Below, piece after piece: positions 6,521-63,647 of a stretch of 64,000 nucleotides of DNA. The stretch is taken from NCBI GenBank assembly GCA_963807605.1, contig CAWECG010000003.1:640001-704000 (forward strand). Reading direction: 5' to 3'. This DNA is from Candidatus Bathyarchaeota archaeon. Lineage in GTDB: Archaea; Thermoproteota; Bathyarchaeia; 40CM-2-53-6; RBG-13-38-9. How positions within the stretch are numbered: position 1 is the first letter of the stretch; each line of letters begins with the position of its first letter. Below the pieces are notes generated by a model that ran no database searches, was not told the origin of the DNA, and was given only the letters and a program-made list of their open reading frames with translations. The translations under genes and the position numbers were made by a program.

Positions 6521-6754
6521 GAATCGGCTTAAGATTCTCTACGTTGATTCCGTTACGCGTGTAACTCAAAACATCAGCGAGATCCAGCGAGCCATTATAA
6601 ATGGTTTAGTGGTGATGCACTCATCCGGCGAGCACATACAATAGTATACTGCTCGCTGGGCGAGCAAAGTTGATGATAAAGATTATTTTTCTAGGACTTG
6701 TAATGCTTCCCACAAAAACAATGATATGTGCGTTAATGTGACGGTGTAGATCGT

Positions 6755-7060
6755 TTGCGGAAAGTGAAATTCAATGCGCTGATTAATGTCTTCATTCTCA
6801 TCTTCTTCATAGTCTCAGGGACGTCGGGAATTATCGTGTGGACAGTCTTGCCTAGCGGAAGTAATGTGACATTGGGAGGAGGCAAGTTGCCTCAGGAAAA
6901 CCAAGAGCCCCCAGGTCAACAATTCCTTTACTTATCTCGCAATAATTGGATGGATATACACACCTATGTGAGCCTAATGTTCATTGTCCTTGTAGTAGCC
7001 CATGATGTGCTCCATTACAGCTGGTTCAAACGGTTGCCCAAGATATTATCGCGCGCTTAA
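6755..7060 (+). CDS. DUF4405-like small membrane protein (putative heme b binding)
   Basis: TM-SG...W.DIH.Y..L.F..L...H..LH.W pattern. Confidence 0.75.
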   Translation: MRKVKFNALINVFILIFFIVSGTSGIIVWTVLPSGSNVTLGGGKLPQENQEPPGQQFLYLSRNNWMDIHTYVSLMFIVLVVAHDVLHYSWFKRLPKILSRA

Positions 7061-7273
7061 TCTTATGTTGAGTCTTTGAATTTTTCATTATAAAGTCGAA
7101 GACCGGTAAGTATTGCCTCCTCTGCTTTTCTCGCGTTATCCCCTCCTTTGATCCTCACCCTTTTCTGGGGTCAATATGGGAGTGTCTGGGCTAGTGCAAG
7201 GGCTAATGGGTTAGGGATATGGGGATAGTTGGGTAGAATGATATTGTTCGTACTACTATCCTCCCCTACTTTG

Positions 7274-7337
7274 TACTACTTTAGTAGTATTCAACATAGG
7301 TAATTGGAATAGTACGTGTCAAGACTACTCAAGTAGT
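7274..7337. promoter_or_regulatory. Two ACTACT-N2-AGTAGT palindromes, candidate transcription-factor operators
   Basis: TACTACTttAGTAGTA at 7274-7289 and ACTACTcaAGTAGT at 7324-7337, half-site TACTACTA at 7251. Confidence 0.4.
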
Positions 7338-7599
7338 ACTATTCCCTGGGCTATCCAATATTATCCGTCTGCACAAATGACATTATCCTTCGTTATCCCA
7401 AGATCTCTGGTACATTGTCCTTTCTTAGGTGACTGTATGGATCGTGGAATTGAGGAAGTTCTACGAGAATTACTGAGCTTGGGAGAAAAGAAGCCCCGAT
7501 TCAGTGATGACTTGAAAAGAGGCCATAGATGGTTAGGGGATATAGATAACTGGCTGTTTGGTGTGGTCACGTGGATACTAGTTTTAGCGCGCGCGTGAC

Positions 7600-8031
7600 T
7601 CACTCGATACGTCTCTTAGCCCAGCGGACGACGCCGAAGATCGCCACCACTATGCCAATCAACAGTAGTACACCTATAGCCACTGACCCAATAACAGCGA
7701 CAATAACCGGTACGATGATACCAAACATCCAGAATGGAATTATCACGCCAAGACCAATGCGCCGGAACAACGCGATCCCAAAACCTACGCCAGGTACGAG
7801 AGAATTCGATCCCACCATTATCAAAGGCGCAACGTACAGACCAAACCTGTCTACAACCAAGTCAAGGCCGAATATCAAACCGAGAACAAAATACCAGTCA
7901 AGGCCAGCAAAGTTCCATCCTGCCAAGCCCTTGTGTTCATTATCTGCCCCTGGCGCACCTTGGCCAGCAACTCCGCCCGCAGCCACACCAACAGTAAACG
8001 ACACCCATCCCCTGTCACCAACCTCCCACAT
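7600..8031 (-). CDS. Hypothetical Gly-rich multi-TM membrane protein
   Basis: Several hydrophobic segments, basic C-terminus; start uncertain. Confidence 0.5.
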   Translation of the reverse strand: MWEVGDRGWVSFTVGVAAGGVAGQGAPGADNEHKGLAGWNFAGLDWYFVLGLIFGLDLVVDRFGLYVAPLIMVGSNSLVPGVGFGIALFRRIGLGVIIPFWMFGIIVPVIVAVIGSVAIGVLLLIGIVVAIFGVVRWAKRRIE

Positions 8032-8032
8032 G

Positions 8033-8476
8033 TCAGATGCCCTCCATTGCGGTCATACGGGTACGGCCCCAATGAGATGAGCAATCCTTGAGCAAGGATT
8101 GGCGTAGCTCCGAGGACCGAAAAGGCAACACCCATTGTCGCTTTTTGACAAAGGATTCGAACTCGTCATCTACATTCAATCGCATGTCTGTTGGTGCAAA
8201 TAGGATGGCTTTTGCATCTTGAAGATTGGCGCGAGTCACCTTGAAGGTCTCTCCAATTAAAGCTCCAGCATTTCCTCTGATAAGATCATCCATCCATATT
8301 TCGCCTGTACAATTAAGGCATGCGTGTATATTCGCAGCAGTCAGTCTCTCACCTAGAATTGCTACTGGCTCACCGTCCCCGACGCTCAACTGCATCATCG
8401 ATTTCTTACTAAGGCGAGCGATGCCATGACCGACATCACGTTCTTGAGCATTTCTAACAATAGGTGTTGATTCCAA
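8033..8476 (-). pseudogene. Truncated CDC48/VAT N-terminal domain (no AAA module)
   Basis: A.ERDVG.GIARL...M.QL....G, I.MD.LIR.NAGA.IGE...V, APTDMRLNVD.EF..FVK match CDC48-N; similarity breaks at a frame change near 8135. Confidence 0.7.
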
Positions 8477-8670
8477 AATTGAACCCCAAAAAGGAATTCT
8501 CGGCAGATTTCTTTACTGCTCTCCTTGACTAGAGCTATTAAAGGATTTTTCAATTGCGCCATCGATGACCGTAGCACGCGTAGAAGTTATGTCTACTCTT
8601 TCCCATATTCAACGTATGAGTCCTTGTTAACGCCAAGTACTTTCGTTTCTTCCAGTTCATTCGCTTCTTT

Positions 8671-8682
8671 TAGCGCGCGCTA
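8671..8682. repeat. Perfect copy of dispersed palindrome TAGCGCGCGCTA
   Basis: Read directly; same 12-mer at 29465, 38237, 45659. Confidence 0.9.
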
Positions 8683-8766
8683 GCATATGGCTCGAAACCA
8701 ATGCTTTTATTCAGCAACAGAATTAATCGGGAAAATAATCTACACGACTAGGAGTATTCTGTCTCA

Positions 8767-9396
8767 TTGCCCGAAAGTTCTACCGGCTTCAATTCTCGGC
8801 CTCGTGTCGAAACCTTATCTGATATGACATTTGGACTAGCTTTGTCGATAGGCGCGCTTTCTCTGCTCAGCAAACCGCCAAGCAACCCAGGGGAGATAAG
8901 AAGTGACATAGTCGGGTTTGCATTCAGTTTCCTCATCTTGATATTTGTGTGGGTAAGCTACACTCGCGTCATGTCTGTGCTCCCAATCGAAACTAGCATC
9001 ACCTTGTTTCTCAACATCGTGATGCTTTTCCTAGTAATAATTGAACCCTACTTGTTCTATCTGGTAAGCCAATTTGGACGTGCCGGCGAATATCGATTGA
9101 TAGAATATGCTTCCACCTTGTATGCCCTTGATATGGGTGGCCTCATGGCAATTCTAGCCTTCTTTAATTATGAACTCTCCGCAGAAGAAAAGAACCTCGT
9201 TCCGCAAGAAGTGCTTCCCAGACACAAACGCATCAGAAATATCCTCTTTGTGTCGGCGGGTTTGTTCTTCTTGACGGCTCTTCCACAGTTCTGGTCTTGG
9301 CAGATCGATAAAGCTCCATTGAGATTTTATTTCTGGCTCAGCCCGTTGGCAATCGCTTGGATTTCAAGAGGCCTGAGAAGCTTCCGAGATTCTTGA
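8767..9396 (+). CDS. TMEM175 (DUF1211) family K+ channel-like protein
   Basis: RVETLSDMTFGLAL resembles RxxxFSDxxFAIA; about 6 TM; SFLIL..W..Y. Confidence 0.8.
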   Translation: MPESSTGFNSRPRVETLSDMTFGLALSIGALSLLSKPPSNPGEIRSDIVGFAFSFLILIFVWVSYTRVMSVLPIETSITLFLNIVMLFLVIIEPYLFYLVSQFGRAGEYRLIEYASTLYALDMGGLMAILAFFNYELSAEEKNLVPQEVLPRHKRIRNILFVSAGLFFLTALPQFWSWQIDKAPLRFYFWLSPLAIAWISRGLRSFRDS

Positions 9397-9545
9397 AACG
9401 GACACAATCCTTACGCACGTACGACACATGAGCTTTTCCCCCAAAAAAAGGTAGGCTGGTTGGTGAACACTGACAACGGTTCAAATCAAGCCACCTCATA
9501 AGACAAGAGAAAAAGCGCGCGCTAATTGAATATCTAGTCAACAGA

Positions 9546-10250
9546 GTGAAAGGCTTGCGTCGCGGAAATATTGTGGATGACCCTACGTTTAGATCTAAGA
9601 CTCAATTATTCAATGACAGGTGTGAGGCTGGAAAGCTTCTGGCCGATATGTTCAAGAAGAGATCACCCAGAGACTCAATCGTACTAGCAATCCCGTCGGG
9701 AGGAGTGCCGGTTGGCTACTGCCTCTCTCGACAGTTGAAATTCCCACTTGACATAATTGTGGTCCGCAAGGTACCGATACCTGATAACCCAGAGGCTGGC
9801 TTCGGTGCGATTGCGCTTGACGGTACGTTAGTCATCAATAAGGGGCTCGTAGAGGAGTTGGGGATCGATAAGCAGACGATCGACACCCTTGCAGGGGCAA
9901 GACTTGCAGAAGTAAGGGAAAGGCTGGAAAAATTTCGGGGCAAGAAAGAACCGACCAAACTCGCTGATAAGAATTTGATTCTTGTAGACGACGGACTGGC
10001 CTCAGGATATACTATGCTTGTAGCAATAAGGTCGGTGAGGAAACAGTTCCCTAGAAGCATAATGGTTGCTATCCCGACAGCCCATGACAAAGCTCTAAAA
10101 CTTCTTTCTTCCGAGGCTGATGAGATCTATTGCTTGAACATAAGATATGGGCCATTCTTTGCTGTTGCAGATGCATACAAGAATTGGTACGATCTTAGTG
10201 ATGAAGAAGTCAATGAGTACCTGTTGAAAGCTTGGAAGGCGCCTCACTAG
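9546..10250 (+). CDS. Phosphoribosyltransferase-family protein
   Basis: F.DR.EAG..LA, VLAIPSGGVPVG, ILVDDGLASG PRPP loop. Confidence 0.9.
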   Translation: MKGLRRGNIVDDPTFRSKTQLFNDRCEAGKLLADMFKKRSPRDSIVLAIPSGGVPVGYCLSRQLKFPLDIIVVRKVPIPDNPEAGFGAIALDGTLVINKGLVEELGIDKQTIDTLAGARLAEVRERLEKFRGKKEPTKLADKNLILVDDGLASGYTMLVAIRSVRKQFPRSIMVAIPTAHDKALKLLSSEADEIYCLNIRYGPFFAVADAYKNWYDLSDEEVNEYLLKAWKAPH

Positions 10251-10403
10251 CTATTCATAGTCAAGATGATGCGGAAGCCAAAGCGCGCTAAGTCGCTTTG
10301 AGGATAGAGGAGAAGTTGTTGAGACAAAGGTCATAACTTATGCGGGATCCTCCCTTCCGCACCATAATACTATGAAAGAAGAAATGAGGAGTTCTGAGCG
10401 AGT

Positions 10404-14412: not shown

Positions 14413-14575
14413 GAGAGAACAGATACCAACGACTTTGTTCACCACTTACGTGGTGAAGTATTCATAGCGCGCGTTTCTTTAGAAAACGCGGGTGTGTTCA
14501 TACCTATAACCTCCTTTCGTAAAGTCGAATGCGAGTGCGCCCATCACTATTGTGATTTCACAATCCTTCAGTTGT

Positions 14576-15358
14576 CTATGCTGAATTCGCGTTAGTTTGA
14601 TTCCCGCCACATGTGGGACAATACTGCCACCCTTGGGAAAGGCGTGAGCCACAATGGATACAAAATCTGACCTGCCTGTGTTCGTGAGGTGATATCTCGT
14701 CCACTATTTTGATCTCTTTTTTGACTCTACGGTACAGCAGGAGGATGAACAGGACTGCCAACGCCAGACTCAAGACGCCTAAGCCTAATGAGACTATGAG
14801 ATCATAGATTGTGTGAAGGAGAATTGGAACAGCAAGGGCAAGAATCTTCAGCTTGGCCTTTGAATCGAACTTAGAGCGGCCAAGATAGAACCCCATTGTT
14901 GCTCCAAAGAAAGCGTGTCCAGGAACGCTCAGCGAAGCTCTAAACAAAGCAACAAGCCATCCGCCTTTCAACACGTAGAGTGTGTTCTCGACGGATGCAA
15001 ACCCCATGGAGGCAGTTGTGGCGTAGACTATTCCGTCCATGGGCTCATTGAAATCTCTCGAGTGGTAGGCATGGAGAGTCGCCAGTAGTTTGCAGGATTC
15101 CTCAACAGCAGCTATCACAATGAGGTTATGGAGAATTAAACCTACTATGTCTGAGAAGGGATTCGTGGGTTCGGGTAAGACATTGGAAAGGATCAGCTCA
15201 AGTATCACTGCTGGAACTATAGATAGTGCTCCCAGAACAAACGTGACGAGCAACATCCTTAGGGGCTCTCTCTCGTACCGGTCCCTTTTTGCGATAATCC
15301 ACAAAAGAACCAGGCAGGGAACGACTGCGGCCACAAAGAGCTCAAGCAAAGAAGTCAT
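14576..15358 (-). CDS. PrsW-family intramembrane metalloprotease with C-terminal Zn-ribbon
   Basis: D..EREP, VEESCK, DGIVYA...GFA..EN, PGH, H..YD; CIHC...CPTC. Confidence 0.92.
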   Translation of the reverse strand: MTSLLELFVAAVVPCLVLLWIIAKRDRYEREPLRMLLVTFVLGALSIVPAVILELILSNVLPEPTNPFSDIVGLILHNLIVIAAVEESCKLLATLHAYHSRDFNEPMDGIVYATTASMGFASVENTLYVLKGGWLVALFRASLSVPGHAFFGATMGFYLGRSKFDSKAKLKILALAVPILLHTIYDLIVSLGLGVLSLALAVLFILLLYRRVKKEIKIVDEISPHEHRQVRFCIHCGSRLSQGWQYCPTCGGNQTNANSA

Positions 15359-23311: not shown

Positions 23312-23583
23312 CGGCACCTGAAAGCTTTTGAGTGAGAAATGCTCGCTCTTCAAGAATCCCATCAAGGAATGCATCTGCCGTCCATAGTGCGGCTATGGCT
23401 TCCCTCGAGATTGAGGGAAACCTAGTGCCTGTTCTACCTGACAAAGATCAAACCCAAGAATGACCCGACAGAAAAACCCAAATGAAGAGCGCGCTAGCAG
23501 CCTAGTTCTCGGCATGCAGAATTCAAAAAGCATCATAACTTTTTAATCCTAGAACCTTCGGCAAGTGTATTCACGATGTTCAG

Positions 23584-23847
23584 GTGATCCAAGTGAACGT
23601 CTCTCCCGACATGAAACAGGAGGTTCATCTTTTTCTACGCAGTTACACAGGCTACTTGGAGTCAGTGAAGCCTCAACAGCTCTACGTTTCACTCGTCGAA
23701 AAATCGAGAGATTTGGCCGAACTTGACGAAGCAGTTGAGAAAACAATCGCAGATGCTAAAGCTAGAAGCGATTATCGACTCGCAGAGACAATAATGAGTC
23801 TGCACCAAAGGATAAGACGTAACTACTTTCAGATCACTGGCTCTTGA
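23584..23847 (+). CDS. Hypothetical helical protein (87 aa)
   Basis: Open frame with protein-like composition, TATA-like TTTTTAA near 23540. Confidence 0.6.
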   Translation: MIQVNVSPDMKQEVHLFLRSYTGYLESVKPQQLYVSLVEKSRDLAELDEAVEKTIADAKARSDYRLAETIMSLHQRIRRNYFQITGS

Positions 23848-24369
23848 TAACATCATCGCAGACGAACAGTGGATTGCAGAGAGAACTATCCAGACACCGA
23901 AGACGCAAGCATTTCCGTCACATGCTCAGATACTTTCTATGGTTTTGACTATTCTCGGAGATAGTTCTTCGCTAGAGTGTGCCTTCAGCATATCTTTGGC
24001 TTAATCTCTTGATCATGCCTTTAGTCATGCTCTAAGTCGAATTCTGGCTTCCAATTCCATTCTGCTCGAGCAGCATAGTTATCAATGGAGATTGGCCAGC
24101 GCGCGCTATTCAGCCACCAATTCTATCCCATATGCACTCGTGAAGGACCAACATAATCTCGGTTTTCCTGGAAAGGTGAAACGTTTGTTTCACCAAAGCT
24201 TCTGAAGAATCTGCTACTTCTAGGAACTTCAATTTCTCAAATGGATCGTTGCACTGATTGATTTTCTACGCGTGCGGAAGGTCTCTGTACGTCATTCCAA
24301 ACAAGCAATATAAGAGCTGATGATAAATGAACATCTTACCAACAAATCTTTGGGAGCAGATAAATCACA

Positions 24370-25761: not shown

Positions 25762-25888
25762 CAATTCCTCTATCGTACATTCTTTACATAAACTGGCGCC
25801 AACTCAAAAGGCACTAATAATCGTTCAAGATCCGACGGGAAAAGAGTTTAATGATCCTTAGAGGGAAGAGAATCTACGAGGTGTTTGA

Positions 25889-27082: not shown

Positions 27083-27292
27083 TCTTGCCAAGCAGTTTTC
27101 CTAGTTAATGATTGAACTGTCTAGTGTGCTAGCGAGCCCTCCGTCGAACGCGCGCGTCGCTATCCGGAACATGAGATCTGAGTATGCCTAGAACTTCAGA
27201 CTAGCCGGTTGAGGTGTAGAGTAGAACACTAATTTATCTAAGAGGTCTATTGATTTTGAAGCACTGTCAAAGCTCCTTGCGAGATTCTTTCA

Positions 27293-37673: not shown

Positions 37674-37681
37674 TATCCCAC

Positions 37682-42610: not shown

Positions 42611-42614
42611 GGAA

Positions 42615-42648: not shown

Positions 42649-43022
42649 AGTTCTACTTCTAACCATAATTAAGGATTGGTGACCTTACAGTAACGCGTTA
42701 CGTCGTGACCTCGGACCCAAGTAAGCATCCTAGGGAGTTTCGAGAATAGAGGAAATGACCACGCGCCTACAGATTCGGGGACCCAGCGTAACAGTAGGCA
42801 GTAGACGACACACCGTCCCTGCCACCGCGAGAAAATTCCCATCATCCGAGATGACTATGACACCGAAAATTGCTAATAGATGCTGGAGATGCTCAAATGT
42901 GTGAGCCAGCGCTTTGCTGGTGCGTAGTGAAATCTTTAGGCGGTCGCGCGGTATTGCAAATGTATGCAGATAAATGGGTGTGTAATAAGTCATCGTGTGT
43001 CGTAGGAGAGAGATAACTACAG

Positions 43023-45658: not shown

Positions 45659-45670
45659 TAGCGCGCGCTA
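45659..45670. repeat. Perfect TAGCGCGCGCTA palindrome
   Basis: 20 nt downstream of TSUP stop. Confidence 0.9.
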
Positions 45671-47670: not shown

Positions 47671-47927
47671 CGCCCCCTATTACCAGCAAAAAAAGCCACC
47701 CACTCGTAAACCTTAACGAGAACTCAAAGGGTAAAAGAGTGACGCGCTCTACAGGGCTTAGGCTTGCTGATCGGTGGTGATACAAACCAACTGTAGGTAG
47801 ACATAGATAACTGACCGTTCTGCGGGATCACGCAGATACTGGTTTTTGACGCGGCCATTAATGTGTACATTTCTGGAGGAAGTTGCCTAACACGTGTGCA
47901 GTACAGCCTTAGCGCGCACGTAACACC

Positions 47928-48449
47928 TCACATGAACCTCTCGAACCTGTCCCTCTTGGCCTTGCATATTGGACACACGGCCGGAGGACTCACCCTAGCA
48001 CACAGATAACCACATACCTTGCATCGCCACACCGGATAGGTCAACCCGACCGGCGCCGTTCCGCCCTTCAGGATCTCCATCGTGTCCTGCTTCATCTTCT
48101 GGCGGTCCTCGGCAGGAGGTCGCCGCTCAGGTATTGACTTTGCCTCCTTCTTGCCGGCCTTTATGTCATCATCCACGTAGAGTGCACAGTAGCATGCTCC
48201 GTATTCCACTAGATCCTGATCTCTATAGTCGCAAGGACATATGATGTCTAGATCCTCATCCTTATTTCCCGAGGCGAGCCTGCAGGGACAGGCCATATAC
48301 CCGTATCTCTCCTCGTTGGTGAGGAGCCCCTTGATGAGATTCTTCACAAACTCCTTGTCTGGGTGCAGGTGGTAGCCTCCTTCCTCCGCTTCTTTGTCGA
48401 GCCTCTCCATTGTCTTGACAACCCTGTCCTCTGAGACAGAGGGGCTCAT
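47928..48449 (-). CDS. Ferredoxin:thioredoxin/glutaredoxin reductase-like (FTR catalytic + C-terminal rubredoxin)
   Basis: CPCR, CPC, CYC; CKVC...CPIC; ATG 48449 overlaps upstream stop. Confidence 0.92.
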
Positions 48450-48727
48450 AATCTTAGAGCCTCCTTTATCTTGTCCTCGTTGAACCCCACTATGCAATAC
48501 TGATTGTCGATCACTATGGTAGGGTAGGAGCCTACAGGATTCCACTTCTCGACCTCTTTCATGATATTGTCCCTCTCCTTTCCCATCAGGAGATCGACTT
48601 CGACGTAATCATAGGCCAAGCCTAGCTCTCTAAGGAACTTCTTTATCTTCTTGCACCATCCGCAGGTGCTGAGGGTGTAGAGAACGATCTTCCCGGCATT
48701 CTTTCCCTTTACGTGAACGATGTTCAT
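48446..48727 (-). CDS. Glutaredoxin/NrdH-like redoxin
   Basis: LSTCGWC, NP..SYPT, IVGF. Confidence 0.92.
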
Positions 48728-48950
48728 TTCTATCGCATCTTGATAGATTCACTATTGTGTTTGGAGTAGTATTTTTGTTTGATTATTTTTCAAGCAGAAC
48801 AATGATAATGACAAGTATTTGTTCTCATTCGATCGTTTCTACTTTCATGCAAGAGGAATAACGCTCGCTTACAGACGTTAGGTCGAGTGATTCATTAGGC
48901 TTCAACCTTTAAGAATTTGAACTAGTCAGATTGAGTTGGAGTGATTATGA

Positions 48951-49520
48951 ATGAGGGTGCTTGGTATAGTCGGTAGTCCTAGGAAGGGGGGAAACTCAGA
49001 CATTCTGGTGGATGAGGTGCTGAGAGGAGCTAAGGATACTGGCGCAGAAGTGGAGAAACTTTTTTTGAATGAGCTGGAGATTAAACCTTGTCAGGCCGTA
49101 TGTAGCGATTACTGCAAGGGGAAAGGCGACTGTAAGATAAAGGATGATATGTCGCCATTATACAGTAAACTCTATGATAGCGATGCCATAGTTTTGGGCA
49201 CCCCTCTCTATTGGTACGGTCCAACCGCTCAATTGAAAGCGTTCATGGACCGTTGGTACGCATTCTCGCATCCAAGATACATTCACAAGATGAAAGGAAA
49301 GAAAGTAGTCTTAGTGGCACCATTCGAAGAGAGCGATATCTCCGCAGCCGACCCCCTTGTGCAGATGTTCACCAAATCACTAGATTATCTTGAGGCTGAA
49401 TTTCATGCAAAATTACTCGTCTCTGCAGGAAAGAAGGGTGCGGTAAAGCAAGACCCAGAAGCGATGAGCCAAGCCTACAAAATAGGACTACAATTGAAAT
49501 CAATTTCGAAGGGCCCTTAG
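48951..49520 (+). CDS. Flavodoxin-fold iron-sulfur flavoprotein / NADPH-dependent FMN reductase
   Basis: GSPRKGGNS, C..C...C....C.IKDD, TPLYW, K.FMDR. Confidence 0.9.
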   Translation: MRVLGIVGSPRKGGNSDILVDEVLRGAKDTGAEVEKLFLNELEIKPCQAVCSDYCKGKGDCKIKDDMSPLYSKLYDSDAIVLGTPLYWYGPTAQLKAFMDRWYAFSHPRYIHKMKGKKVVLVAPFEESDISAADPLVQMFTKSLDYLEAEFHAKLLVSAGKKGAVKQDPEAMSQAYKIGLQLKSISKGP

Positions 49521-49521
49521 A

Positions 49522-50142
49522 TTGGAACCCCTACTAGATGTTCCCCTCTTCCTCGTTTCAGTTGCTATCATATCACTTTCAGGCGTGATGATGCCTGGTC
49601 CAGTAATGGCTGTAACGATAGCAAAAGGGAAAAGCAGCGGGAACGCTGGAGCTTTAATCGCTTTAGGCCACGGGGTTATAGAGATACCTCTAATGGTCTT
49701 AATCTATTTTGGATTCGCACAGTTTTTCGCCTATGAGATCGTAAGGAGAGTCATCGGGTTTGTTGGGGGCGTAATGCTCGGTTTCATGGGAACACAGATG
49801 TTCAAAACCAAAGACCACGTTGAAGGAGAGGAACTGAATATGAAGTTCAGTTCACTATTCTCAGGAATCGTTACGACAACCGCTAATCCCTATTTCTTTC
49901 TTTGGTGGGCGACAATCGGATCTGCTTTAGTCATTAACTCAACCATCTTTGGCATGACTGGATTCCTCCTCTTTGCTCTTGCTCATTGGTCATGTGACTT
50001 TGCCTGGGATCTCTTCGTCTCAAAAGCAGTCTATAAATCACGTAACTTCTGGAATTTGAAGATCCATAGGATCGTCTTTGGTGGATGCGCGTCAATTTTG
50101 ATTATTTTTGGATTTTGGTTTGTCTACTCAGCGATAAAGTAA
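49522..50142 (+). CDS. LysE-family transporter
   Basis: SLSG.MMPGP, GH..IE, NPYF..WW. Confidence 0.9.
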   Translation: MEPLLDVPLFLVSVAIISLSGVMMPGPVMAVTIAKGKSSGNAGALIALGHGVIEIPLMVLIYFGFAQFFAYEIVRRVIGFVGGVMLGFMGTQMFKTKDHVEGEELNMKFSSLFSGIVTTTANPYFFLWWATIGSALVINSTIFGMTGFLLFALAHWSCDFAWDLFVSKAVYKSRNFWNLKIHRIVFGGCASILIIFGFWFVYSAIK

Positions 50143-50195
50143 ATGATGCCAATTAGGCAGGGTTACACGAGTATCAGCGTATGGATGACTAGAAA

Positions 50196-51188
50196 TTGGG
50201 TGGAAGAAACACTCCCAAGATTGCTATAACGATGGGCTATGCAGCCGGCATTGGACCTGAACTGATTGTCAAAACACTGTCAAAACCAGAAATGCACCTT
50301 GTGTGCAGGCCCTTGGTCATAGGCGACAGTAGAATACTCCGGAAGATAGCTGGAATATGCGGTGTGACGATCGAGTGGAATAAGATTGAGAACGCTGGAC
50401 AGGCTGAATTCAAACCCGGTTTGGTTGACTTGATAGATCCGCAGAACACGCCGATTAATGATTTTGAGTGGGGAAAAGTCATTCCGTCTTTGGGCAAAGC
50501 CTCTGGAGAATATCTTGAGATTGCTTGGAAAGCCGCGATCGACAGAAAAGTCGAGGGAATCATATCGGGGGTCCTCCATAAAGAGGCGCTGAATAAAGGC
50601 GGCTACCCTTTTAGTGATGAACTTGAATTCTTCTCCAAGATTACTGGAAGCCCAAAGCCCTTTCTTGTCGGTGTAACAGGCAATTTATGGACCATTCCAG
50701 TCACCTGTCACATACCTTTCAAAAAGATCCCTGAGAAGATAACCGAAGATAATGTGCTCTTTCATATCAAAGCCATAAACCAAGTGATGCGCAACTACGG
50801 CTTTGAGAAACCCCGAATAGCGGTTGCTGCCCTTAACGTACACGGAGGAGAAGGAGGCCTCTTCGGTGATGAGGAGAAGAAAGCCATTAAACCAGCCATA
50901 TCAGAGGCATGTCGTCTTGGAATAGATGCATCTGGACCTTACCCGGCAGATACCATATTTATACGTGTTCAGAATGGAGAATTTGACTCCATTGTTGGCA
51001 TGTACCATGATCAAATAAACATAGGAAGGAAACTGATAGGTGGAATGAAGGGCGCGACACTCTTCATGGGACTTCCCGTTCCATGCGGCACAACAGCACA
51101 CGGCACAGCACTCGGTAAGGCTGGCAAAGGCATTGCTGACTTTTCAAGCATGGAAACTGCGGTCAAAATAGTCTCAAGACTTGCTTGA
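50196..51188 (+). CDS. PdxA-family dehydrogenase (likely PdxA2, acid-sugar phosphate)
   Basis: ITMG..AGIGPE, TCHIP, LN.HGGE.GLFG.EE, GP.PADT.F, MYHDQ, TAHGTA. Confidence 0.9.
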   Translation: MGGRNTPKIAITMGYAAGIGPELIVKTLSKPEMHLVCRPLVIGDSRILRKIAGICGVTIEWNKIENAGQAEFKPGLVDLIDPQNTPINDFEWGKVIPSLGKASGEYLEIAWKAAIDRKVEGIISGVLHKEALNKGGYPFSDELEFFSKITGSPKPFLVGVTGNLWTIPVTCHIPFKKIPEKITEDNVLFHIKAINQVMRNYGFEKPRIAVAALNVHGGEGGLFGDEEKKAIKPAISEACRLGIDASGPYPADTIFIRVQNGEFDSIVGMYHDQINIGRKLIGGMKGATLFMGLPVPCGTTAHGTALGKAGKGIADFSSMETAVKIVSRLA

Positions 51189-51454
51189 GACATGATGTCA
51201 AGAGCGCGCGTGCTATAGACCCCTTGTTCTACAACAAAATATGGAAACTTGACCAAGAGTATAATCTTGCACAATACCGAATCGCAGAAGAATATCTCAA
51301 TATTATCAGCGGTTCCACAGTTCAATCGAAAATCGATACCGATGAGCACGTGGTGACTTTTTGTTTTGCCTGTGGCACGCTGCTTGAGTCAGGAGTTATA
51401 TGCACGTAGCTAGAAGAATTTATGCAAACCATACGCGTGCTAAGAAATGTCGGG

Positions 51455-52486
51455 TTAATACTTTCCTTTCCATAGTTTTGTGTCTTTGGTCTTAACCACT
51501 TTGTTCCTTAGGACCCCTATGCCTTCTATTTCAAATTCTATAATGTCTCCTGGCTTTATCCATTGATCGTTCTCGGATCCACATCCTCCTCCAACCGTGC
51601 CTGAGCCGAAGACTTCTCCGGGGTGAAGTGTCTCGTCTTGAGAACAGTATTCAATTATTTCTTCCCAAGTGAATTGCATGGTTCCAGTGTTGCCGTCGGT
51701 AACTATTTTGTCATTTATTTTTGCGGTCATTCTCAGATTTCTTATTCTATTACGTAGCTCGTCAGCGGTTACAAGACAGGGTCCCATAATGTAGCCGTTG
51801 TTGAAGTCTTTGCCCTTGGCGGGTCCCATGCGGGATTCCATCTCGATCCTTTGCCTGTCTCTTGCGCTTAGATCGTTCAAAATGGTGTATCCTGCTATGT
51901 ATTCTGCTGCTTTGCTGCTGGGTATGTCTGTTCCTTTCTTGCCAATGTACATGGCATATTCGAACTCGTAGTCCAATTTGTTCGTATAGCTAGGCCATAG
52001 GATTGGATCGTCTGGACCAGCAATGAGGTTGGTATTGCATTTATGATATATCGGAATGTCGTAGAATATTTGGGAAACCGTCTCTCCCCGTCTCTTTCGC
52101 ATGGTTTCGTAGTGTTTCAGAAAACCCATGAAGTCTCTCATATGCGCTGGTTTAGGTATTGGCGCAAGTAACCTCACTTCTTGCCGGCTATATGTTATTC
52201 TTTCATCGTTAGGTCCCTTTAATCCGCTTTCTTTCTTCAGACTCGCTTCTACGTAATCAAGTGCTTTTCTTGAGGCTTCTCTAGCAAAGTCTCCACGTTT
52301 CAAGTACTCTATCATGTCAAGTGGGATAGTGAATTCCGCCAGGGTATAGGCCTCATCTTCTGCTTTATCGTAAAAAAGATACGACGCATAAGCCGTTCTT
52401 AAGTCCACTATGCGATCAAAACTTAAAGCACCAATTCTAGTGAAAATGCCAACAGGTGTCTTCACTTCAAAAGTAACTAGCTTCAA
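51455..52486 (-). CDS. Fumarylacetoacetate hydrolase family protein
   Basis: RDF..F..H, LDYEFE, GYTILNDLSARD.Q, KGKDF, GSGT. Confidence 0.92.
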   Translation of the reverse strand: MKLVTFEVKTPVGIFTRIGALSFDRIVDLRTAYASYLFYDKAEDEAYTLAEFTIPLDMIEYLKRGDFAREASRKALDYVEASLKKESGLKGPNDERITYSRQEVRLLAPIPKPAHMRDFMGFLKHYETMRKRRGETVSQIFYDIPIYHKCNTNLIAGPDDPILWPSYTNKLDYEFEYAMYIGKKGTDIPSSKAAEYIAGYTILNDLSARDRQRIEMESRMGPAKGKDFNNGYIMGPCLVTADELRNRIRNLRMTAKINDKIVTDGNTGTMQFTWEEIIEYCSQDETLHPGEVFGSGTVGGGCGSENDQWIKPGDIIEFEIEGIGVLRNKVVKTKDTKLWKGKY

Positions 52487-52851
52487 CCTTTACGCGTCTC
52501 CAGCTTCGATTATTGTAGGAGAAGTCCACCATGGAGAAAATATTAAGCATTTATTTTCGCTTTTCTGGAAGCATTAAGCGCGCCAATCAGATCAACCGTA
52601 ATTATGCCTGAAGGCTTGAAAGAAGACCCAACGTTTCTGACGGCCAATTTCAAGGTCAGCAAGGAACCGTAGCAGTCCGCCCCAACTGATCTTCAGTATG
52701 GGATCGTTTCCCCCTTTTTGTTTTCACTGAAGAACGTGACGCACGTGCGTGAACGCAGGATCTGTCTCCATGAGGCGCTGAAGCACGATGAACCTTGATC
52801 TTTAACCGCAAGTAATTTAAACCCTCTTCATTGACATCTTCAAAGGATTAG

Positions 52852-54240
52852 GTGTCTTTTAAGTTGAGTGAAGAAAAACCTAGCGAAGAAAAGAAGGTTG
52901 AAGAGAAGACGACTGAAGAGAAAAAGAAGATCACTAGACGTGCCTATCTGAAATACGCTGGCGGCGCTGTTGCCGTTGCTGCCATAGCTGCTGCGGGATA
53001 CGAGGCTTACCAGTACTATGGACAACCTGTTACCCCAACTACCTCAGTTTCGCATGTTACACCCCCCCCAGGTTACAAGACAGTGAAAATCGGTGGAACC
53101 AAGCCGCTAACCGGTTCTGCGGCACTAAACGGTATAGATGAAGATCATGGGCTGGAAATCTGGGCGAAGGATTGGGTCAACAACCAAGGCGGAATAAAGG
53201 CTGGAGACGGAAACACATACATGGTCGATTTGACTATCTACAATGACGAGTCAAAACCTGAGAACGTAAGCAGATTCTATGAGAAACTGATCAGCGAGGA
53301 TAAAATGGACTTCCTAATGGGCCCCGTTTGGGGGCCTCTTGGCCAAGCAACGGTCGCTGCGGTTGAGAAATACCATAAACTGGAGATCTATGGAAACTCT
53401 ACCTTCGACCCAGCACAGTGGAAGAACTGGAAATACATAATGATGGTCCAGACCAATGGAAGCGAATACCTGAACATTCTAAATAAGATGATCATCAACA
53501 AGATTATACCCAAAGATCCGGATGCAAAGAACATAGCGATAGTCCACACCGACGATGGATTTGGAATCATAGCTGGAACATATGGCTACCAGTGGGCAAA
53601 GCAGCAGCCTCAACTGAACATAGTCTACTATGAGAAGGTATCTTTCGATTCAACAGATTTTACTCCGGTACTCACAAGGGTCAAACAAGCCAATCCATCG
53701 ATACTCCTATTCGAAGCCGGTCTTAAAGCACCACTGGCTGCAAAGAATGTTCGCGAGCTCGGGCTAGACCTGAAACTATTCTACGCCGGCACCTACGGAG
53801 TTTACAAAACATTCTACGACGGACTCGGCCCCAAGTACGGCGAAGACATAGTCTCTATAACCCAGTGGGTTCCGGGAGAGGACTACCCATCCAACTATGG
53901 ACCAACAGAAGACTGGTTCATGACACAATTAAAGAATGACTACAACGTTACAAATCCAGGATACCCGGCAGGGACAGGTTTCACGCAAGGCCTTATCCTG
54001 CAAGCCGCTATGGAGAAATGTAGTAACCCGTTGGACTCCGACGCGATGAGACAGGTTGTCGGCAATGTAAAGTTCACTGGTTTCTTCGGGGATATAGCCT
54101 TCGATCCGGTGACTGGCTGGCAGACAGGCCACGAGATGTCAGCGCTGCAGTGGCAGGATGGCAAACCAGTCTGCGTCTACCCAGACAAGGTCGCGAAGGC
54201 GCCAGTGAGATATCCAATGGCAAAGTGGTCTACACTCTAA
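52852..54240 (+). CDS. Branched-chain amino-acid-type ABC substrate-binding protein with Tat signal
   Basis: TRRAYLK Tat motif, PLTG, N.QGGI, Y.DES.P; no permease genes adjacent. Confidence 0.88.
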   Translation: MSFKLSEEKPSEEKKVEEKTTEEKKKITRRAYLKYAGGAVAVAAIAAAGYEAYQYYGQPVTPTTSVSHVTPPPGYKTVKIGGTKPLTGSAALNGIDEDHGLEIWAKDWVNNQGGIKAGDGNTYMVDLTIYNDESKPENVSRFYEKLISEDKMDFLMGPVWGPLGQATVAAVEKYHKLEIYGNSTFDPAQWKNWKYIMMVQTNGSEYLNILNKMIINKIIPKDPDAKNIAIVHTDDGFGIIAGTYGYQWAKQQPQLNIVYYEKVSFDSTDFTPVLTRVKQANPSILLFEAGLKAPLAAKNVRELGLDLKLFYAGTYGVYKTFYDGLGPKYGEDIVSITQWVPGEDYPSNYGPTEDWFMTQLKNDYNVTNPGYPAGTGFTQGLILQAAMEKCSNPLDSDAMRQVVGNVKFTGFFGDIAFDPVTGWQTGHEMSALQWQDGKPVCVYPDKVAKAPVRYPMAKWSTL

Positions 54241-54249
54241 ACCACAGAT

Positions 54250-54289
54250 CTCCTTTCCTCCTTTTCCCTTTTCTTTTTTCTTTTTTCTT
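54250..54289 (+). terminator. Oligo-T terminator
   Basis: Long C/T tract with several T runs directly after stop. Confidence 0.6.
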
Positions 54290-54705
54290 AGGATGGATAG
54301 GTATGGTGCTAGAGTTTTTCGCGCAGACAATTGATTTCTGCTTTTGAATATCGGCTTTGCCTAAGATCTAAAGAACACGTGATTCTGTGGTGTTCGGATC
54401 GCTGTAGGAGATCGTTGTCATCTGCGATAGATGATTTCACCGTGATGAGATGCGCGCGCCGAAGCTTTCGGCATGCTTTTGGCGTCATTAAGCTTGCCGA
54501 AGTGGCTTTATCATATCTCTGAAGCTCTGCCAATGAGGAAAGTTGAATTGGGAGAACCTGCCTCTACGCTGCTGAAATACGGTAGTTGAGTATTCCGGAT
54601 TCACATCATCGTGACTCGTTGATCGGTGGGTCTTGCGATTACTATACACTTATCTGACAGAACTTATTAGCACAATATTCGTTCAGTTGGTTTAGGCGCT
54701 TTTAC

Positions 54706-61114: not shown

Positions 61115-61714
61115 TTAAGAGATTCGTGTGCTTTTCTGGAAGGTTATTAATGAATCGTCTTTGTAAGAAATCGTTCCAGCATGAACAAACCTTGCCTGCT
61201 CTACCTCTTGGACGACTTCCGTCTTGTTGATGATTGGGGGACCGACCCTTCCAGAGAATACGCTCCTACCGGTCTTCTCAACAATGATCAGTCTACCCGG
61301 TGGCTTCATGATCCTAAAGAACTCAGTAAGAACTCTTATCCTGTCTTCCACTTCATGAAAAACATGTACTAGAAGGATAATGTTAACGCTCTCATCCTCA
61401 AGCTCAATCTCTGTTCCGTCAGTCCTCAGGAGCTCTACGGTCACACCACTTCTCTTAGCGTAAGGGGTGACCTTATCAAGCATCTTTGAAGAGATGTCTA
61501 TCCCGATTGTTCTATCTGCAACTTTAGCTATGGGGATCGTGAAGAAACCAGTGCCGCAGCCGAAATCTATGACAACGTCAGTCGGCTTTATCTTCAGCTT
61601 TTGGATAAGCGGCTCAGGAGGATAAAGAAGCCTTCTAATCGGGTTGCTTAGTATAAAGGCCATTCTCTCTGGGAAGCGCCTGTGTATATTAAAGGCGTGA
61701 GCCGATTTGACCAC
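61115..61714 (-). CDS. Class I SAM-dependent methyltransferase
   Basis: DFGCGTG, GIDIS, VFHEV, RIMKP.G; start GTG 61714 or ATG 61663 (longer ORF runs into IS). Confidence 0.9.
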   Translation of the reverse strand: MVKSAHAFNIHRRFPERMAFILSNPIRRLLYPPEPLIQKLKIKPTDVVIDFGCGTGFFTIPIAKVADRTIGIDISSKMLDKVTPYAKRSGVTVELLRTDGTEIELEDESVNIILLVHVFHEVEDRIRVLTEFFRIMKPPGRLIIVEKTGRSVFSGRVGPPIINKTEVVQEVEQARFVHAGTISYKDDSLITFQKSTRIS

Positions 61715-61725
61715 TACTAGCGCGC

Positions 61726-62829
61726 GGGCTTGTCCCGATATTCTTTGAGTTGACACGGAAAGATCCATATGGTTTGAGCCCCACACCCTCCTACTTGGAG
61801 GCGATTCCAGATAGAAGGGTACGAGACTCTGGAGTCACTGCTGAGTAATCTGGATTTATCGTTTGTTGAACGCCTCATTGTTAGCTGCTATCATCAAGAC
61901 GGTCCAGGTAAACCTCCACGAAACCCCTTAGGACTCTTCAAGGCACACCTCGCCAGACGCTACCTGAGAATGAGCAGTCTGCGTGATTCTGAACGCCACT
62001 TATGTCATGATGAGAGGCTACGTGACATATGCGGCATAAGATATGAGGAGCCAGCGTACGGTAGGACGGTACTCTCAAGATTCAACCAGCGGCTAGGCGC
62101 AAGAAGACTAAGACGCATAGTAAACAAACAGGTCAAGAAGTTGCTGAAGAAACACATAGCAAAACCCAGGATAGTCGCTATGGACGCTACCTTCATCAAA
62201 GCCTACAGCAGACGCAACATAAACAATAGAACAGGCTTCAGCGACCCTGAAGCCCGTGTAGGAAGAGCCTACCGCACATACAGCCTAGGTTACAAACTAC
62301 ACCTCACAGTCGATGCAGACACAGGGACACCCCTAGCCTTCCTCATCTCACCAGCAAACACTAACGAGAAGAAACTCAGCATACCACTCCTCAAAATGAC
62401 AGTTAAAACCACAGCAATCAGAATCCGACAGCTAACCGCTGACAGTCAATACTCCAGCAACAGACTCAGAGAGACCGCTAAAAGACACAAAATCAAGACC
62501 GCGATACCCTACCCAGCCAACCAGAACCCTGAAAGACAAAACATCCTCAGAGTAACCAGCGACTTCAAAACACACGGCCCAGAAAACCTCAAACGCATCT
62601 ACAAGAAACGCTCAACCATAGAGCTCGTCTTCGCATCACTCAAAGAACACCTCACCCTCAACAATCACAAAACAAGAGGCTTAGAAAACATCACCATCCA
62701 CACCAGCTACTGCATACTATGCCTACTCTACACCATAGAAGCCTCACACAACACCAAACAACCCACCAAAACCAGAAGCATAACACACTGGACAAACCTA
62801 ACATGAAAACGCTAATATCGGGACAACCC
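61726..62829 (+). mobile_element. Insertion sequence (IS5/IS1182-like DDE), about 1.1 kb, 7-bp target duplication AGCGCGC
   Basis: TIRs GGGCTTGTCCCGATATT (61726-61742) and AATATCGGGACAACCC (62814-62829); AGCGCGC at 61719-61725 and 62830-62836. Confidence 0.9.
61769..62806 (+). pseudogene. DDE transposase with in-frame TGA at codon 3
   Basis: ATG GTT TGA GCC...; frame then open through G.GKPPRNP..LFKA (DUF772-like), MDATFI, ADSQY, RSTIELVFASLK. Confidence 0.8.
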
Positions 62830-62888
62830 AGCGCGCTATAGCTTATTCTGTCGATGAGAGGTTAGGGGTGTTGCTTGAAGTTCATTTC

Positions 62889-63038
62889 TTAGATCTTCGT
62901 TATTTCGAGTTCAGCGAATACGCGTATACTCTTGTGTTTTTCTTCGAATTCTCTTAATAATTCGATTATTCTCTTTTCGAGTCGGGCTTGATCAGGGTCT
63001 GGTATAAATGTAACTTTTGATAAAGTGACATCCGGCAT
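62889..63038 (-). CDS. 49-aa hypothetical protein, not in ORF track
   Basis: MPDVTLSKVTFIPDPDQARLEKRIIELLREFEEKHKSIRVFAELEITKI*. Confidence 0.5.
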   Translation of the reverse strand: MPDVTLSKVTFIPDPDQARLEKRIIELLREFEEKHKSIRVFAELEITKI

Positions 63039-63179
63039 AACTGTGCACGTTCTGTATCGTGTGGCGTCTTGAGTTTTAAGCTTTCCTGGAATGCACGCTG
63101 ATTACAAAAAGACGAACAAGAGGGTGACACTCATTTCAGAGTTTAGTGCAGTCCGACCGGGATACGCGAGCGGGTTTCA

Positions 63180-63563
63180 TCAGCCGTTTTCTATCGGAAG
63201 CACGGCATCGACCAGGAGCAGTTTCGAAAGGGAGAACCAGTCTTCGACGACTGCTTTGGAGGCTTTGCCGTAGTATTTTTCATAAAGTGCGAGTTTGGCG
63301 GTCCATGCCTCGTCCTCGAGTGCATCTAGGTATCGTGCTTTCCCCATGAAGCGTTCTCCGCCGATCTCAAAGACGATCCGAGCGTTCTTCTTGATATTTC
63401 TCATCCAATCGGTCTCTTCACCCTCATGGCTAAGGTAGACCTTATCGTCATTGATGGCAAACCAAAGCTTTACCATGTGAGGCTTTCCAGTTTTTCGTCC
63501 CGTGCTTCTAAGATGAATGAATTTCGCGGATCCCAACTCTGCCAATGCACTCGGGTTTGTCAT
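63180..63563 (-). CDS. Deazaflavin(F420)-dependent nitroreductase (DDN)-like split-barrel protein
   Basis: L.STGRKTGKPH...LWF, DW.RNI..N, KY. Confidence 0.85.
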   Translation of the reverse strand: MTNPSALAELGSAKFIHLRSTGRKTGKPHMVKLWFAINDDKVYLSHEGEETDWMRNIKKNARIVFEIGGERFMGKARYLDALEDEAWTAKLALYEKYYGKASKAVVEDWFSLSKLLLVDAVLPIENG

Positions 63564-63647
63564 AAGGCTTCTCTCACAACTAGCTCGCGCGCGCTAGGCT
63601 TAATCGTTGGTTGAACCGCGCGTGTGTGCCGATTAGGTTCCTTGGGG

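Follow-up and report, generated by a model that had tools for sequence, protein, structure and literature searches.

One question raised by this locus is why a short GC palindrome should recur between so many unrelated genes. The first-pass annotation of the window (the whole 64-kb stretch of archaeal DNA analysed here) read it as punctuation between accessory cassettes, the landing site or the scar of a gene-accretion system. The four perfect TAGCGCGCGCTA 12-mers reported there are present (Table 1), and none arose in 100 dinucleotide-preserving shuffles. The 36 variants listed with them are a mixture: 17 are alternating G/C runs of at least 6 nt (‘runs’ in what follows), but the remaining 19 are degenerate forms that depart from the motif mostly through CG>TG/CA changes (for example TAGCACGCGTAG at 8572, and TAGCGCGTGC at 30668 and 55291). 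With runs absent from that list (8852, 42945, 43099, 45539, 54452, 63617 and a pair flanking an insertion sequence, 61720/62831), the window holds 29 (GC)n runs of at least 6 nt, plus about 19 degenerate copies. Placement is mostly intergenic, as had been said: 25 of the 29 runs by the crude ORF calls made in this analysis, and the run at 61720 was counted in an ORF solely because the insertion sequence extends that reading frame. Runs are found in 19 of the 46 window spacers of at least 50 nt (1.7 runs/kb), as against 25% of spacers and about 1.0 runs/kb genome-wide. The motif is indeed missing from the housekeeping blocks, but this absence is uninformative, as spacer amounts to just 363 and 188 nt in these blocks and 0.2-0.6 runs are expected there.

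Table 1. Motif sites and associated features, in window coordinates
Feature	Position	Strand	Detail
Runs in consecutive spacers	7050..10288		7050-7056, 7587-7595, 8673-8680, 9515-9522, 10283-10288; the block first described as punctuated
Perfect TAGCGCGCGCTA	8671..8682		Divergent spacer, CDC48_N gene (8033-8476, -) and TMEM175-like gene (8767-9396, +)
GCGCGCG run	14467..14473		Adjoins PrsW indel
PrsW-family protease gene	14576..15358	-	Present between coiled-coil gene and Pyr_redox_2 gene
Runs	23489..27156		23489-23494, 24099-24106, 27149-27156
Perfect 12-mer	29465..29476		32-nt spacer, DUF488 (28863-29441, -) and RNase_T exonuclease (29474-30040, -)
Perfect 12-mer	38237..38248		Between ORF 37757-38119 (+) and ABC ATPase gene (38324-39484, -)
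CGCGCGCG run	40498..40505		7-bp direct repeat AACATTT on both sides, resembling a target-site duplication
Two GCGCGCG runs, 11 nt apart	41833..41857		Possible 7-bp GC stem
Runs	42174..42950		42174-42181, 42292-42299 (TTACGCGCGCGTAA), 42945-42950; 1.3-kb region without called gene
Perfect 12-mer	45659..45670		20 nt past stop of TauE exporter gene (44833-45639, +)
Further intergenic runs	47912..54459		47912-47917, 51204-51210, 52578-52583, 54452-54459
Duplicated segment	53501..54328	-	95.4% identical to G000 C1:402107-402935
GCGCGC	61720..61725		Abuts IS-A left; outer flank CTA
IS-A	61726..62830	+	1105-bp insertion sequence, inverted ends GGGCTTGTCCCG / CGGGACAACCCA
IS-A transposase	61970..62806	+	DDE_Tnp_1 domain
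GCGCGC	62831..62836		Abuts IS-A right; outer flank TAT
Runs	63586..63622		63586-63594 (CGCGCGCGC) and 63617-63622; 84-nt spacer

The 12-mer of the window corresponds to the consensus of [T]A(GC)3-5T[A], a motif that is a feature of the genome as a whole and not an integron-like mark of cassette boundaries. The 2.65 Mb analysed contain 768 runs. In non-coding DNA GCGCGCGC occurs 256 times against 3.5-10 expected, while in coding DNA it is near expectation; AGCGCGCGCT occurs 98 times in spacers (0.3-0.8 expected), and GCGCGC 181 times in coding DNA (217-229 expected). Between 81 and 96% of motif copies are intergenic, compared with 16-28% for control GC hexamers. Run lengths range from 6 to 12 nt, with a mode at 8 nt and no geometric decay, and flank specificity is limited to A at -1 (80%) and T at -2 (42%). 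Density is about 1.1/kb, uniform over all spacer types except for a depletion 0-20 nt upstream of starts; positions 10-30 nt past a stop show a 1.5-1.8-fold rise, and a minor peak stands 40-50 nt before starts. Runs are clustered both by chromosomal domain and locally, in short streaks of adjacent spacers, which reach nine consecutive motif-bearing spacers and exceed block-shuffled expectation. Variants one transition away are also in excess (349 observed, 31 expected); these degenerate copies look like the product of neutral decay rather than of site-by-site selection. No substitution drive toward the motif was found at synonymous sites in genes.

Spacer density is alike beside conserved and non-conserved genes: 0.78-0.92 runs per kb of spacer between the former, 1.08 between the latter, and, when rich, middle and poor domains of the chromosome are taken separately, independent of flank conservation. 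This essentially undoes the reading of the motif as a mark of accessory cassettes. Most runs stand at no detectable breakpoint, and several indels between G000 and the congener G001 lack runs. The units it was thought to delimit have a run at either end, at both or at neither, with no fixed gene orientation.

What does reside in the motif is a pair of insertion sequences of the DDE type, IS-A and IS-B, which are related to each other. All 19 independent sites of IS-A, an IS5/IS1182-like element with seven copies in the genome (92-100% identity), lie within the motif; seven are in this genome, one is in a congener and metagenome contigs supply 11. Eleven elements could be seen at both ends and are bounded there by exact GCGCGC, as are the other 8 sites at their single visible end; TA is the outer flank of 11 of 14 half-sites, compared with about 38% in the motif population. 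In the window, the two GCGCGC flanks restore CTAGCGCGCGCTAT if 4 bp were duplicated, a length typical of the IS5 group; a search for an empty IS-A site recovered none, so this length is one that we infer. Flanks of IS-B vary from 5 to 9 nt, which argues that the run is a target and not an IS end; for IS-A, the exact 6+6 flanks could equally mean that GCGCGC belongs to the ends of the element. Both elements share with IS5/IS1182 types a DDE_Tnp_1 transposase, terminal inverted repeats and insertion into a short palindrome, but their transposases fall below all NCBIfam IS-family cut-offs (the best partial matches of the IS-A enzyme being IS1182 and IS5), their target is a 12-bp GC palindrome, and the 4-bp duplication is putative.

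Recent single-gene duplication also ends preferentially at the motif. Among low-copy duplications other than IS, 9.2% of the intergenic ends of homology directly abut a run, against 0.93% of random intergenic positions (about 10 times); in pairs at 95% identity or more the figures are 13% and 1.85%. What has been duplicated is one ordinary gene at a time, and near-identical dispersed copies (98.4-99.9%) of genes for a VTT membrane protein, a P-type ATPase, a CLC channel and a C_GCAxxG protein appear in differing combinations at different loci. The run is usually in one copy of a pair, at one end, and the donor copy usually has none. For the duplicated segment of the window, homology stops in the C1 copy 1 nt before a CGCGCGCGC run, and the window copy has no run at the matching point. 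The PrsW gene is absent between the orthologues of its neighbours in G001, where the ‘empty’ spacer is 112 nt long and carries one GCGCGCGC run; this fits the suggested gain or loss of genes at a motif with a one-copy empty site, but several other indels, which lack runs, do not. Of the gene-accretion proposal, the landing site is supported by the IS and duplicated-gene joints, while the cassette-boundary role is unsupported.

We would give an even chance to the view that the motif is a lineage-specific, hyper-abundant intergenic palindrome, comparable to HIP1 or REP, that serves as a landing site for insertion sequences and duplications, with a role at the DNA level favoured. The IS-A transposase would recognise the 12-bp palindrome as a dimer and cut the central GCGC with a 4-bp stagger, leaving GCGCGC on each side of the element; on this model the four perfect 12-mers of the window would be vacant, preferred IS-A targets, and a fifth would be occupied at 61726. 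Other DNA would attach to the outside of a motif already in place, which would account for a run that is usually in the recipient copy only, at one end. Abundance may be maintained by the DNA-level role, for example as a protein-binding site; duplication of the site upon DNA insertion possibly helps.

HIP1 (GCGATCGC) and the alternate cyanobacterial palindromes are likewise GC-rich octamers, tens- to hundreds-fold over-represented, lineage-specific with lineage variants, and uneven along the chromosome (PMC5861425; PMC4390886). HIP1, however, is cyanobacterial, is abundant inside genes and has sites conserved between genomes (PMC5861425), whereas the archaeal motif is confined to spacers and poorly conserved in position. 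HIPs are accompanied by cognate methyltransferases (PMC4390886), and here no methyltransferase tracked the motif and no synonymous-site drive was seen. Bacterial REP/BIME elements are also extragenic, palindromic, present in hundreds of copies, specific IS targets and linked to genome plasticity (PMC1525189). They are imperfect hairpin-forming palindromes of 20-40 nt with a RAYT (Y1) transposase (PMC2817692), unlike the archaeal motif, which has 8-12 nt, no stable hairpin and no co-occurring Y1_Tnp genes.

A second view supposes that the motif is a by-product of mobile DNA, and we consider it possible but rather unlikely. Runs would be IS termini, target duplications or excision footprints of IS-A/IS-B-type elements and other insertions, piling up in spacers, where they do no harm, and later decaying, with no host function. 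The invariant GCGCGC at every IS-A end is consistent with this, as are the 6-bp direct repeat TAGACT immediately outside the runs of an IS-B-like copy in G008, the run lengths (two retained ends of at most 6 nt each), the fast decay and turnover of copies, the lack of drive at synonymous sites and the local clustering of motif-bearing spacers. Twelve pairs of runs lie no more than 12 nt apart, with spacers (TAG, TA, T, A) that resemble IS tips. Direct repeats of 6-9 bp flank 5 solo runs against 1.5 expected, and in the window AATTCA flanks the first run of the 41833..41857 pair; yet 5 is out of 379, too few to show the proposed scar origin, and about 98% of perfect solo runs have no flanking repeat. 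A TA duplication misfits the solo-motif flanks given above, IS-B flank lengths vary as natural targets do, and 12-nt runs are rare, although they would be expected if excision kept both flanks. Moreover, abundance does not follow the insertion sequences: G041 and G042 are motif-rich (148 and 289 octamers) with no PF01609 match, an absence weakened by MAGs often lacking assembled IS copies and by 21.9 kb of G042 bases missing from the search, and G008 and G012 have the IS and are motif-poor (1-7 copies). G009, G010, G013 and G015 likewise have no PF01609 match. More broadly, DDE transposases, HUH transposases and cytosine methylases showed no correlation with motif abundance across Bathyarchaeia genomes, and no binding protein, methylase, recombinase, HUH nuclease or transposase family was found to track it.

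A purely regulatory or structural element of the host (terminator, promoter-proximal operator or Z-DNA-forming tract), with IS targeting and breakpoints incidental, seems to us improbable. Motifs are kept out of the 20 nt upstream of start codons, are denser after stops and slightly so before starts, and have lineage-specific flanks; (CG)n is, in addition, a classic Z-prone sequence. However, the distance to starts and stops is not fixed and all spacer types are equally populated; there is no T-tract association (5.2% of motifs, 3.4% of controls); a single motif, at -3 kcal/mol, folds no better than shuffles, and the stem of the paired 41833..41857 runs reaches -12.3 kcal/mol with a z of -1.1; the A/T flank preference breaks purine-pyrimidine alternation in this genome; and conservation at orthologous genes is weak.

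Slightly less probable still is a dedicated gene-accretion system, in which a putative recombinase would act on the palindrome and each insertion would duplicate the site, building gene-motif-gene-motif arrays: the dispersed single genes in varied combinations, the long streaks, the single run in the empty G001 site and runs at both ends of 9 of 166 duplicate copies (about 4 expected) are consistent with it, but 124 of the 166 have no run near either end, donors usually lack one, several indels do too, the motif is as dense beside conserved genes as beside non-conserved ones, run position is not fixed relative to gene orientation, most runs lie in spacers showing no rearrangement, and among the compared genomes neither integrases nor HUH enzymes vary together with the motif. 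Integron attC cassettes, which a 2022 Sci Adv article by Ghaly et al. is said to report from Archaea, likewise consist of single-gene units that a recurring palindromic element separates and whose neighbours are functionally unrelated. attC sites, however, are structured and 55-140 nt long, invariably follow the cassette gene on its 3' side, share one orientation and adjoin an IntI integrase, whereas here the site has 8-12 nt, gene orientation is mixed, runs stand at either unit end without a linked integrase, and the distribution is genome-wide.

Abundance is patchy among Bathyarchaeia lineages: five genera of the family are motif-rich, and two other genera and the order's other families are poor; distant complete Bathyarchaeota chromosomes are also rich, but with AT...AT flanks. 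The motif turns over quickly between related genomes; odds ratios for its presence at orthologous spacers are about 2 in the comparison with G001 and 1.2-2.2 in that with G042, both non-significant and of low power. Near the 12-mer at 38237, a GCGCGC run is found in G001 about 84 nt beyond the end of the stretch aligned to window 35872-38022. The final CTA of the 12-mer at 29465..29476 is the minus-strand TAG stop codon of the exonuclease gene. The run at 27149-27156 lies 67 nt after the gene at 25889-27082, whose orthologue is followed by a run 30-46 nt downstream in two complete Bathyarchaeota chromosomes and by two runs in the G001 spacer.

The first-pass annotation reported four perfect copies of the 12-mer TAGCGCGCGCTA in the window, and all four are there; 100 dinucleotide-preserving shuffles contained none. 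Its 36 'variants' are a mixed set: 17 are alternating G/C runs of at least 6 nt (the unit counted below), and the remaining 19 are degenerate, chiefly through CG>TG/CA changes. The window holds 29 such runs in total, several of them overlooked at first, including the pair beside the copy of the insertion sequence IS-A; 25 of the 29 are intergenic on a gene map drawn from our own crude ORF calls by codon usage. The window, positions 640001-704000 of contig C3, is a motif-rich stretch, with a run in 19 of 46 spacers and 1.7 runs per kb. As the 12-mer starts with TAG on either strand, a copy that lies where a gene ends can provide its stop codon.

Across the genome (2.65 Mb in five contigs, 47% GC) the perfect 12-mer occurs 25 times and AGCGCGCGCT 106 times; runs of at least 6 nt number 768, about 550 of them intergenic. 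The motif tops all hexamers as a signal distinguishing spacers from coding DNA: spacers contain GCGCGCGC 256 times against 3.5-10 expected and AGCGCGCGCT 98 times against 0.3-0.8, and coding DNA contains GCGCGC no more often than expected (181 against 217-229). The octamer is over-represented 25-70 fold in spacers and about 4 fold in coding DNA; 81-96% of motif copies are intergenic, compared with 16-28% for control GC-rich hexamers. Spacer runs of 6, 7, 8, 9 and 10 nt number 175, 101, 175, 65 and 30; the lengths peak at 8 nt and do not follow a geometric decay. Conservation of the flanks ends at A(-1) (80%) and T(-2) (42%), which indicates a short motif rather than the core of a longer repeat, and no conserved sequence was found past 10-12 nt around the copies. 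Tandem, divergent and convergent spacers do not differ in run density, each type having about 1.1 per kb. Runs are depleted over the 20 nt upstream of start codons, 1.5-1.8 fold denser 10-30 nt past stops, and evenly spread elsewhere.

Five genera of the family are rich in the decamer (16-119 copies); in two other genera, and across nine further families of the order, it is rare. High counts (148-300 octamers) also characterise two complete Bathyarchaeota chromosomes and one further MAG. In one of these chromosomes, G042 (CP070791.1), orthologous proteins are only about 47% identical to those of the present genome; 78% of the motif is intergenic, and lengths again peak at 8 nt. The flanks of the (GC)4 core differ: AT...AT is preferred in G042 (loci L048-L107), extending the purine-pyrimidine alternation to 12 nt, and TA...TA, which breaks it, in the present genome. 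Individual positions are weakly shared: the odds ratio for presence beside orthologous genes is about 2 against the congener G001, whose proteins are 74% identical, and 1.2-2.2 against G042, in both cases not significant and from small numbers. Single cases of shared presence occur, and paralogous alignments and k-mer counts reveal many decayed copies.

Two related insertion sequences show that DNA enters the motif. IS-A (1105 bp, with a DDE_Tnp_1 transposase) has seven copies here and one in the congener, and its ends lie on 11 metagenome contigs; exactly GCGCGC adjoins both ends where both are visible, and the visible end otherwise, with an outer flank that is mostly TA. IS-B (about 1126 bp, seven full copies) encodes a transposase 41% identical to that of IS-A. 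The runs adjoining it vary from 5 to 9 nt, as would be expected of a natural target rather than of an IS terminus. Assuming duplication of the central GCGC, the IS-A target is the perfect 12-mer in four of seven reconstructions; we infer this 4-bp length, although 2, 4 or 6 bp fit equally in so repetitive a target. No empty IS-A site was found: an exact-protein look-up for sister strains gave no match, nor did a metagenome scan for the empty form of the window site. Both elements have a DDE_Tnp_1 transposase and clear inverted ends, but the transposases fall under all curated NCBIfam IS-family cut-offs, with the best scores for IS1182 (115-121 bits against 270) and IS5_4 (81-90 bits against 140). 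A bona fide IS5-family element, IS-C (297-aa transposase, about 10 copies), was considered as a further specific user and rejected: only one copy, which duplicates CGCGCGTA, was seen in a run, and the rest lie outside GC runs.

Joints of other DNA show the same preference in weaker form. Once multi-copy families were removed, intergenic homology ends of low-copy duplications proved to be flush with a run (an offset between -6 and +2) in 9.2% of cases, against 0.93% for random intergenic positions, and the offsets spike at 0 and +1. Among duplicate pairs of at least 95% identity, 17 of 42 have at least one boundary at a run, and 13% of ends lie there against 1.85% at random; the share declines in older pairs. 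The breakpoint test in G042 had only 75 usable ends, bases adjoining its repeats being missing. What has been duplicated is in each case one ordinary gene and its flanks: VTT-domain membrane protein, YHS/P-type ATPase, CLC channel, C_GCAxxG protein, PMT glycosyltransferase and MBL-fold protein. Duplicates of the first four are 98.4-99.9% identical, and their neighbours differ by locus; the duplicates at loci L155-L160 are a mosaic of metal- and ion-handling genes. A run is usually present in just one of two copies, at one end, often with an A or T flank between it and the shared segment; this arrangement is better explained by insertion beside a pre-existing motif than by filler made at every joint. 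Runs near both ends were seen in no more than 9 of 166 copies. A PrsW gene in the window is an indel relative to the congener and stands beside a run; the gene-less congener spacer has one run, the two spacers being too diverged for alignment to place the junction. Further indels between the two genomes include some with runs and several without.

The first-pass annotation took the palindrome for the landing site or scar of a gene-accretion system that delimits accessory-gene cassettes. Insertion at the motif is its one demonstrated property, precise for IS-A and IS-B and with a roughly tenfold preference for other joints; to that extent the landing-site idea stands, but the accessory-cassette boundary is unsupported. 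Spacers between two genes without a homologue in distant G042 have 1.08 runs per kb, and those between two genes with one have 0.78-0.92. The reported absence from housekeeping blocks (1-4 kb and 19-23.3 kb) is real but uninformative, as their spacers amount to only 363 and 188 nt, with 0.2-0.6 runs expected. Likewise, 98 adjacent gene pairs conserved with a distant relative are nearly all operon junctions, whose spacers, shorter than 40 nt, lack the motif because they are tiny. Location follows region instead, regardless of flank conservation: leave-one-out regional density predicts spacer density (0.4, 0.9 and 1.9 per kb). The counts in 50-kb bins show strong over-dispersion (chi-square 266, 53 d.f.), 40% of spacers adjoining or two away from a motif-bearing spacer carry the motif against 20% otherwise, and long streaks of motif-bearing spacers surpass block-shuffled expectation.

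Nor is the integron analogy supported. An attC site spans about 55-140 nt with paired R''-L''/L'-R' cores, and cassettes are co-oriented, with the site 3' of the gene, next to an IntI tyrosine recombinase. Here conserved sequence does not extend past 10-12 nt, gene orientation is mixed, and runs lie 5' or 3' of units. The absence of an integrase from the window was correctly noted: all five PF00589 matches of the genome lie outside it.

Bacteriologists have known short palindromes of this hyper-abundant kind, HIP1 and REP among them, for 30 years, and understanding of them is still poor. We read the present motif as a probable HIP1/REP-like interspersed palindrome of these archaea. It resembles the HIP class in being an octameric GC-rich palindrome, over-represented 25-70 fold in spacers (HIP, 15-300 fold); unlike HIP, found within and between ORFs at sites kept across genomes, it is spacer-confined and its shared presence is not significant. 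It resembles the REP/BIME-RAYT system in being extragenic and of high copy number; unlike that system, a single motif lacks a stable stem-loop, and no cognate Y1 transposase co-occurs with it. In the literature HIP1 is described as conserved, with uneven spacing and a function still unknown (PMC5861425), and a link to methylases has been reported (PMC4390886); REPs serve as targets of IS elements (PMC1525189).

How such a motif became so abundant admits several answers. A serious rival supposes that the motif originated as a by-product of mobile DNA. Some solo runs may be footprints, for five are bracketed by 6-9 bp direct repeats against 1.5 expected (about 98% are not), and 12 pairs of runs no more than 12 nt apart look like duplication or excision products. 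In the motif-poor genome G008 an IS-B-like element is bounded by GCGCGC on each side, and a 6-bp direct repeat, TAGACT, lies immediately beyond these runs; here the run might travel with the element, the sole case pointing that way. The IS as a general source was nevertheless rejected: neither IS-A/IS-B transposases nor PF01609 in general were found in motif-rich G009, G010, G013, G015, G041 or G042 (the G042 search lacking 21.9 kb of its bases), and IS-A/IS-B-type transposases are present in motif-poor G008 and G012. As a caveat, MAGs often miss IS copies.

A second possibility, which we consider improbable, is a self-propagating landing pad: some activity would cut at or across the motif, each insertion of foreign or copied DNA would duplicate the site and so gradually build motif-punctuated runs of single genes, and IS-A and IS-B would exploit it. 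If true, this would be integrase-independent gene addition in archaea.

Candidate protein families were compared with motif abundance singly, five in all. A RAYT-like driver was rejected, as Y1_Tnp (PF01797) does not follow motif abundance: it was not found in motif-rich genera g3, g4 and g7 or in G041, G042 and G045, and is present in motif-poor G012 and G044. Methylase-linked repair drive, proposed for HIP1, was dropped: no cytosine-5 or N4/N6 methylase tracks the motif across genomes by family presence (PF00145 nearly absent, PF01555 widespread and patternless), and synonymous sites are not enriched. Within genes the observed/expected ratio is 0.83 for GCG-CGC codon pairs and 1.02 for CGC-GCG, which argues against a genome-wide substitution or repair drive and against a DNA uptake sequence; octamer-encoding codon triplets number 12 against 4.6 expected. 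A terminator reading was dropped for lack of a T-tract link or stable hairpin (in 32-nt context the perfect 12-mer at 29465 folds at -10.7 kcal/mol, z -1.6, not significant, and the other three at -3 to -7 kcal/mol, which does not surpass shuffles; mutual pairing is possible only for closely spaced runs), and a promoter or operator reading because distance to starts is not fixed.

Full-text searching of the literature yielded no earlier description of the archaeal motif. It extends hyper-abundant short palindromes to Archaea, with a spacer-only counterpart in uncultured Bathyarchaeia for which the genomes themselves reveal the link to DNA insertion, in IS targeting, single-gene duplication joints and a congener indel. 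The IS-A transposase appears to insert at a specific 12-bp site and, if this is confirmed, could serve as a targeting tool. In practice, strings of genes punctuated by the motif in these genomes should not be taken for integron-like cassettes.

Locations of the motif copies and other features (window positions unless a contig is named; G000 is the present genome)
Feature	Location	Strand	Remark
Perfect 12-mers	8671, 29465, 38237, 45659
12-mer at exonuclease gene end	29465-29476		last three bases are the stop codon
Exonuclease gene	29474-30040	-
Solo runs with flanking direct repeats	40498, 41833
IS-A, window copy	61726-62830	+	runs at 61720 and 62831
PrsW gene	14576-15358		run at 14467
Gene before spacer with shared motif	25889-27082
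Duplicate loci L155-L160	G000:C3:306500-313500, C3:572500-579000, C3:729000-733000, C1:215000-220000, C4:4500-9000, C1:570000-574000
IS-C, example	G000:C3:532246-533329
IS-B-like element, G008 (L150)	G008:C6:1300-5200		about 1466-2609
(CA)n/(TG)n tracts, examples	G000:C1:135144, 137856, 371824, 520645; C3:39707
5S rRNA gene	4052-4173		lone
tRNA-Glu(UUC)	18649-18741		93 nt, probably with intron
SBP_bac_11-type genes	35856-37766, 39596-40459, 40709-41686
Peripla_BP_6 gene	52852-54240		periplasmic-binding protein

A further dispersed element comprises 49 (CA)n/(TG)n tracts of at least 10 nt, all intergenic, mostly joined to conserved ...GCTGGTGAG or CTCACCAAGGG... sequence and some exceeding 100 nt; as a sister signal of the motif it was rejected, being a separate repeat with a variable microsatellite end. 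In the window, three SBP_bac_11-type solute-binding-protein genes, one a double-domain fusion of 636 aa, surround an ABC ATPase gene with a TOBE domain, and are probably the tungstate/molybdate ('tup') region named by the first-pass annotation. The Peripla_BP_6 gene matches at least six different contigs of the congener at 78-81% nucleotide identity, and is thus a member of an expanded paralogue family.
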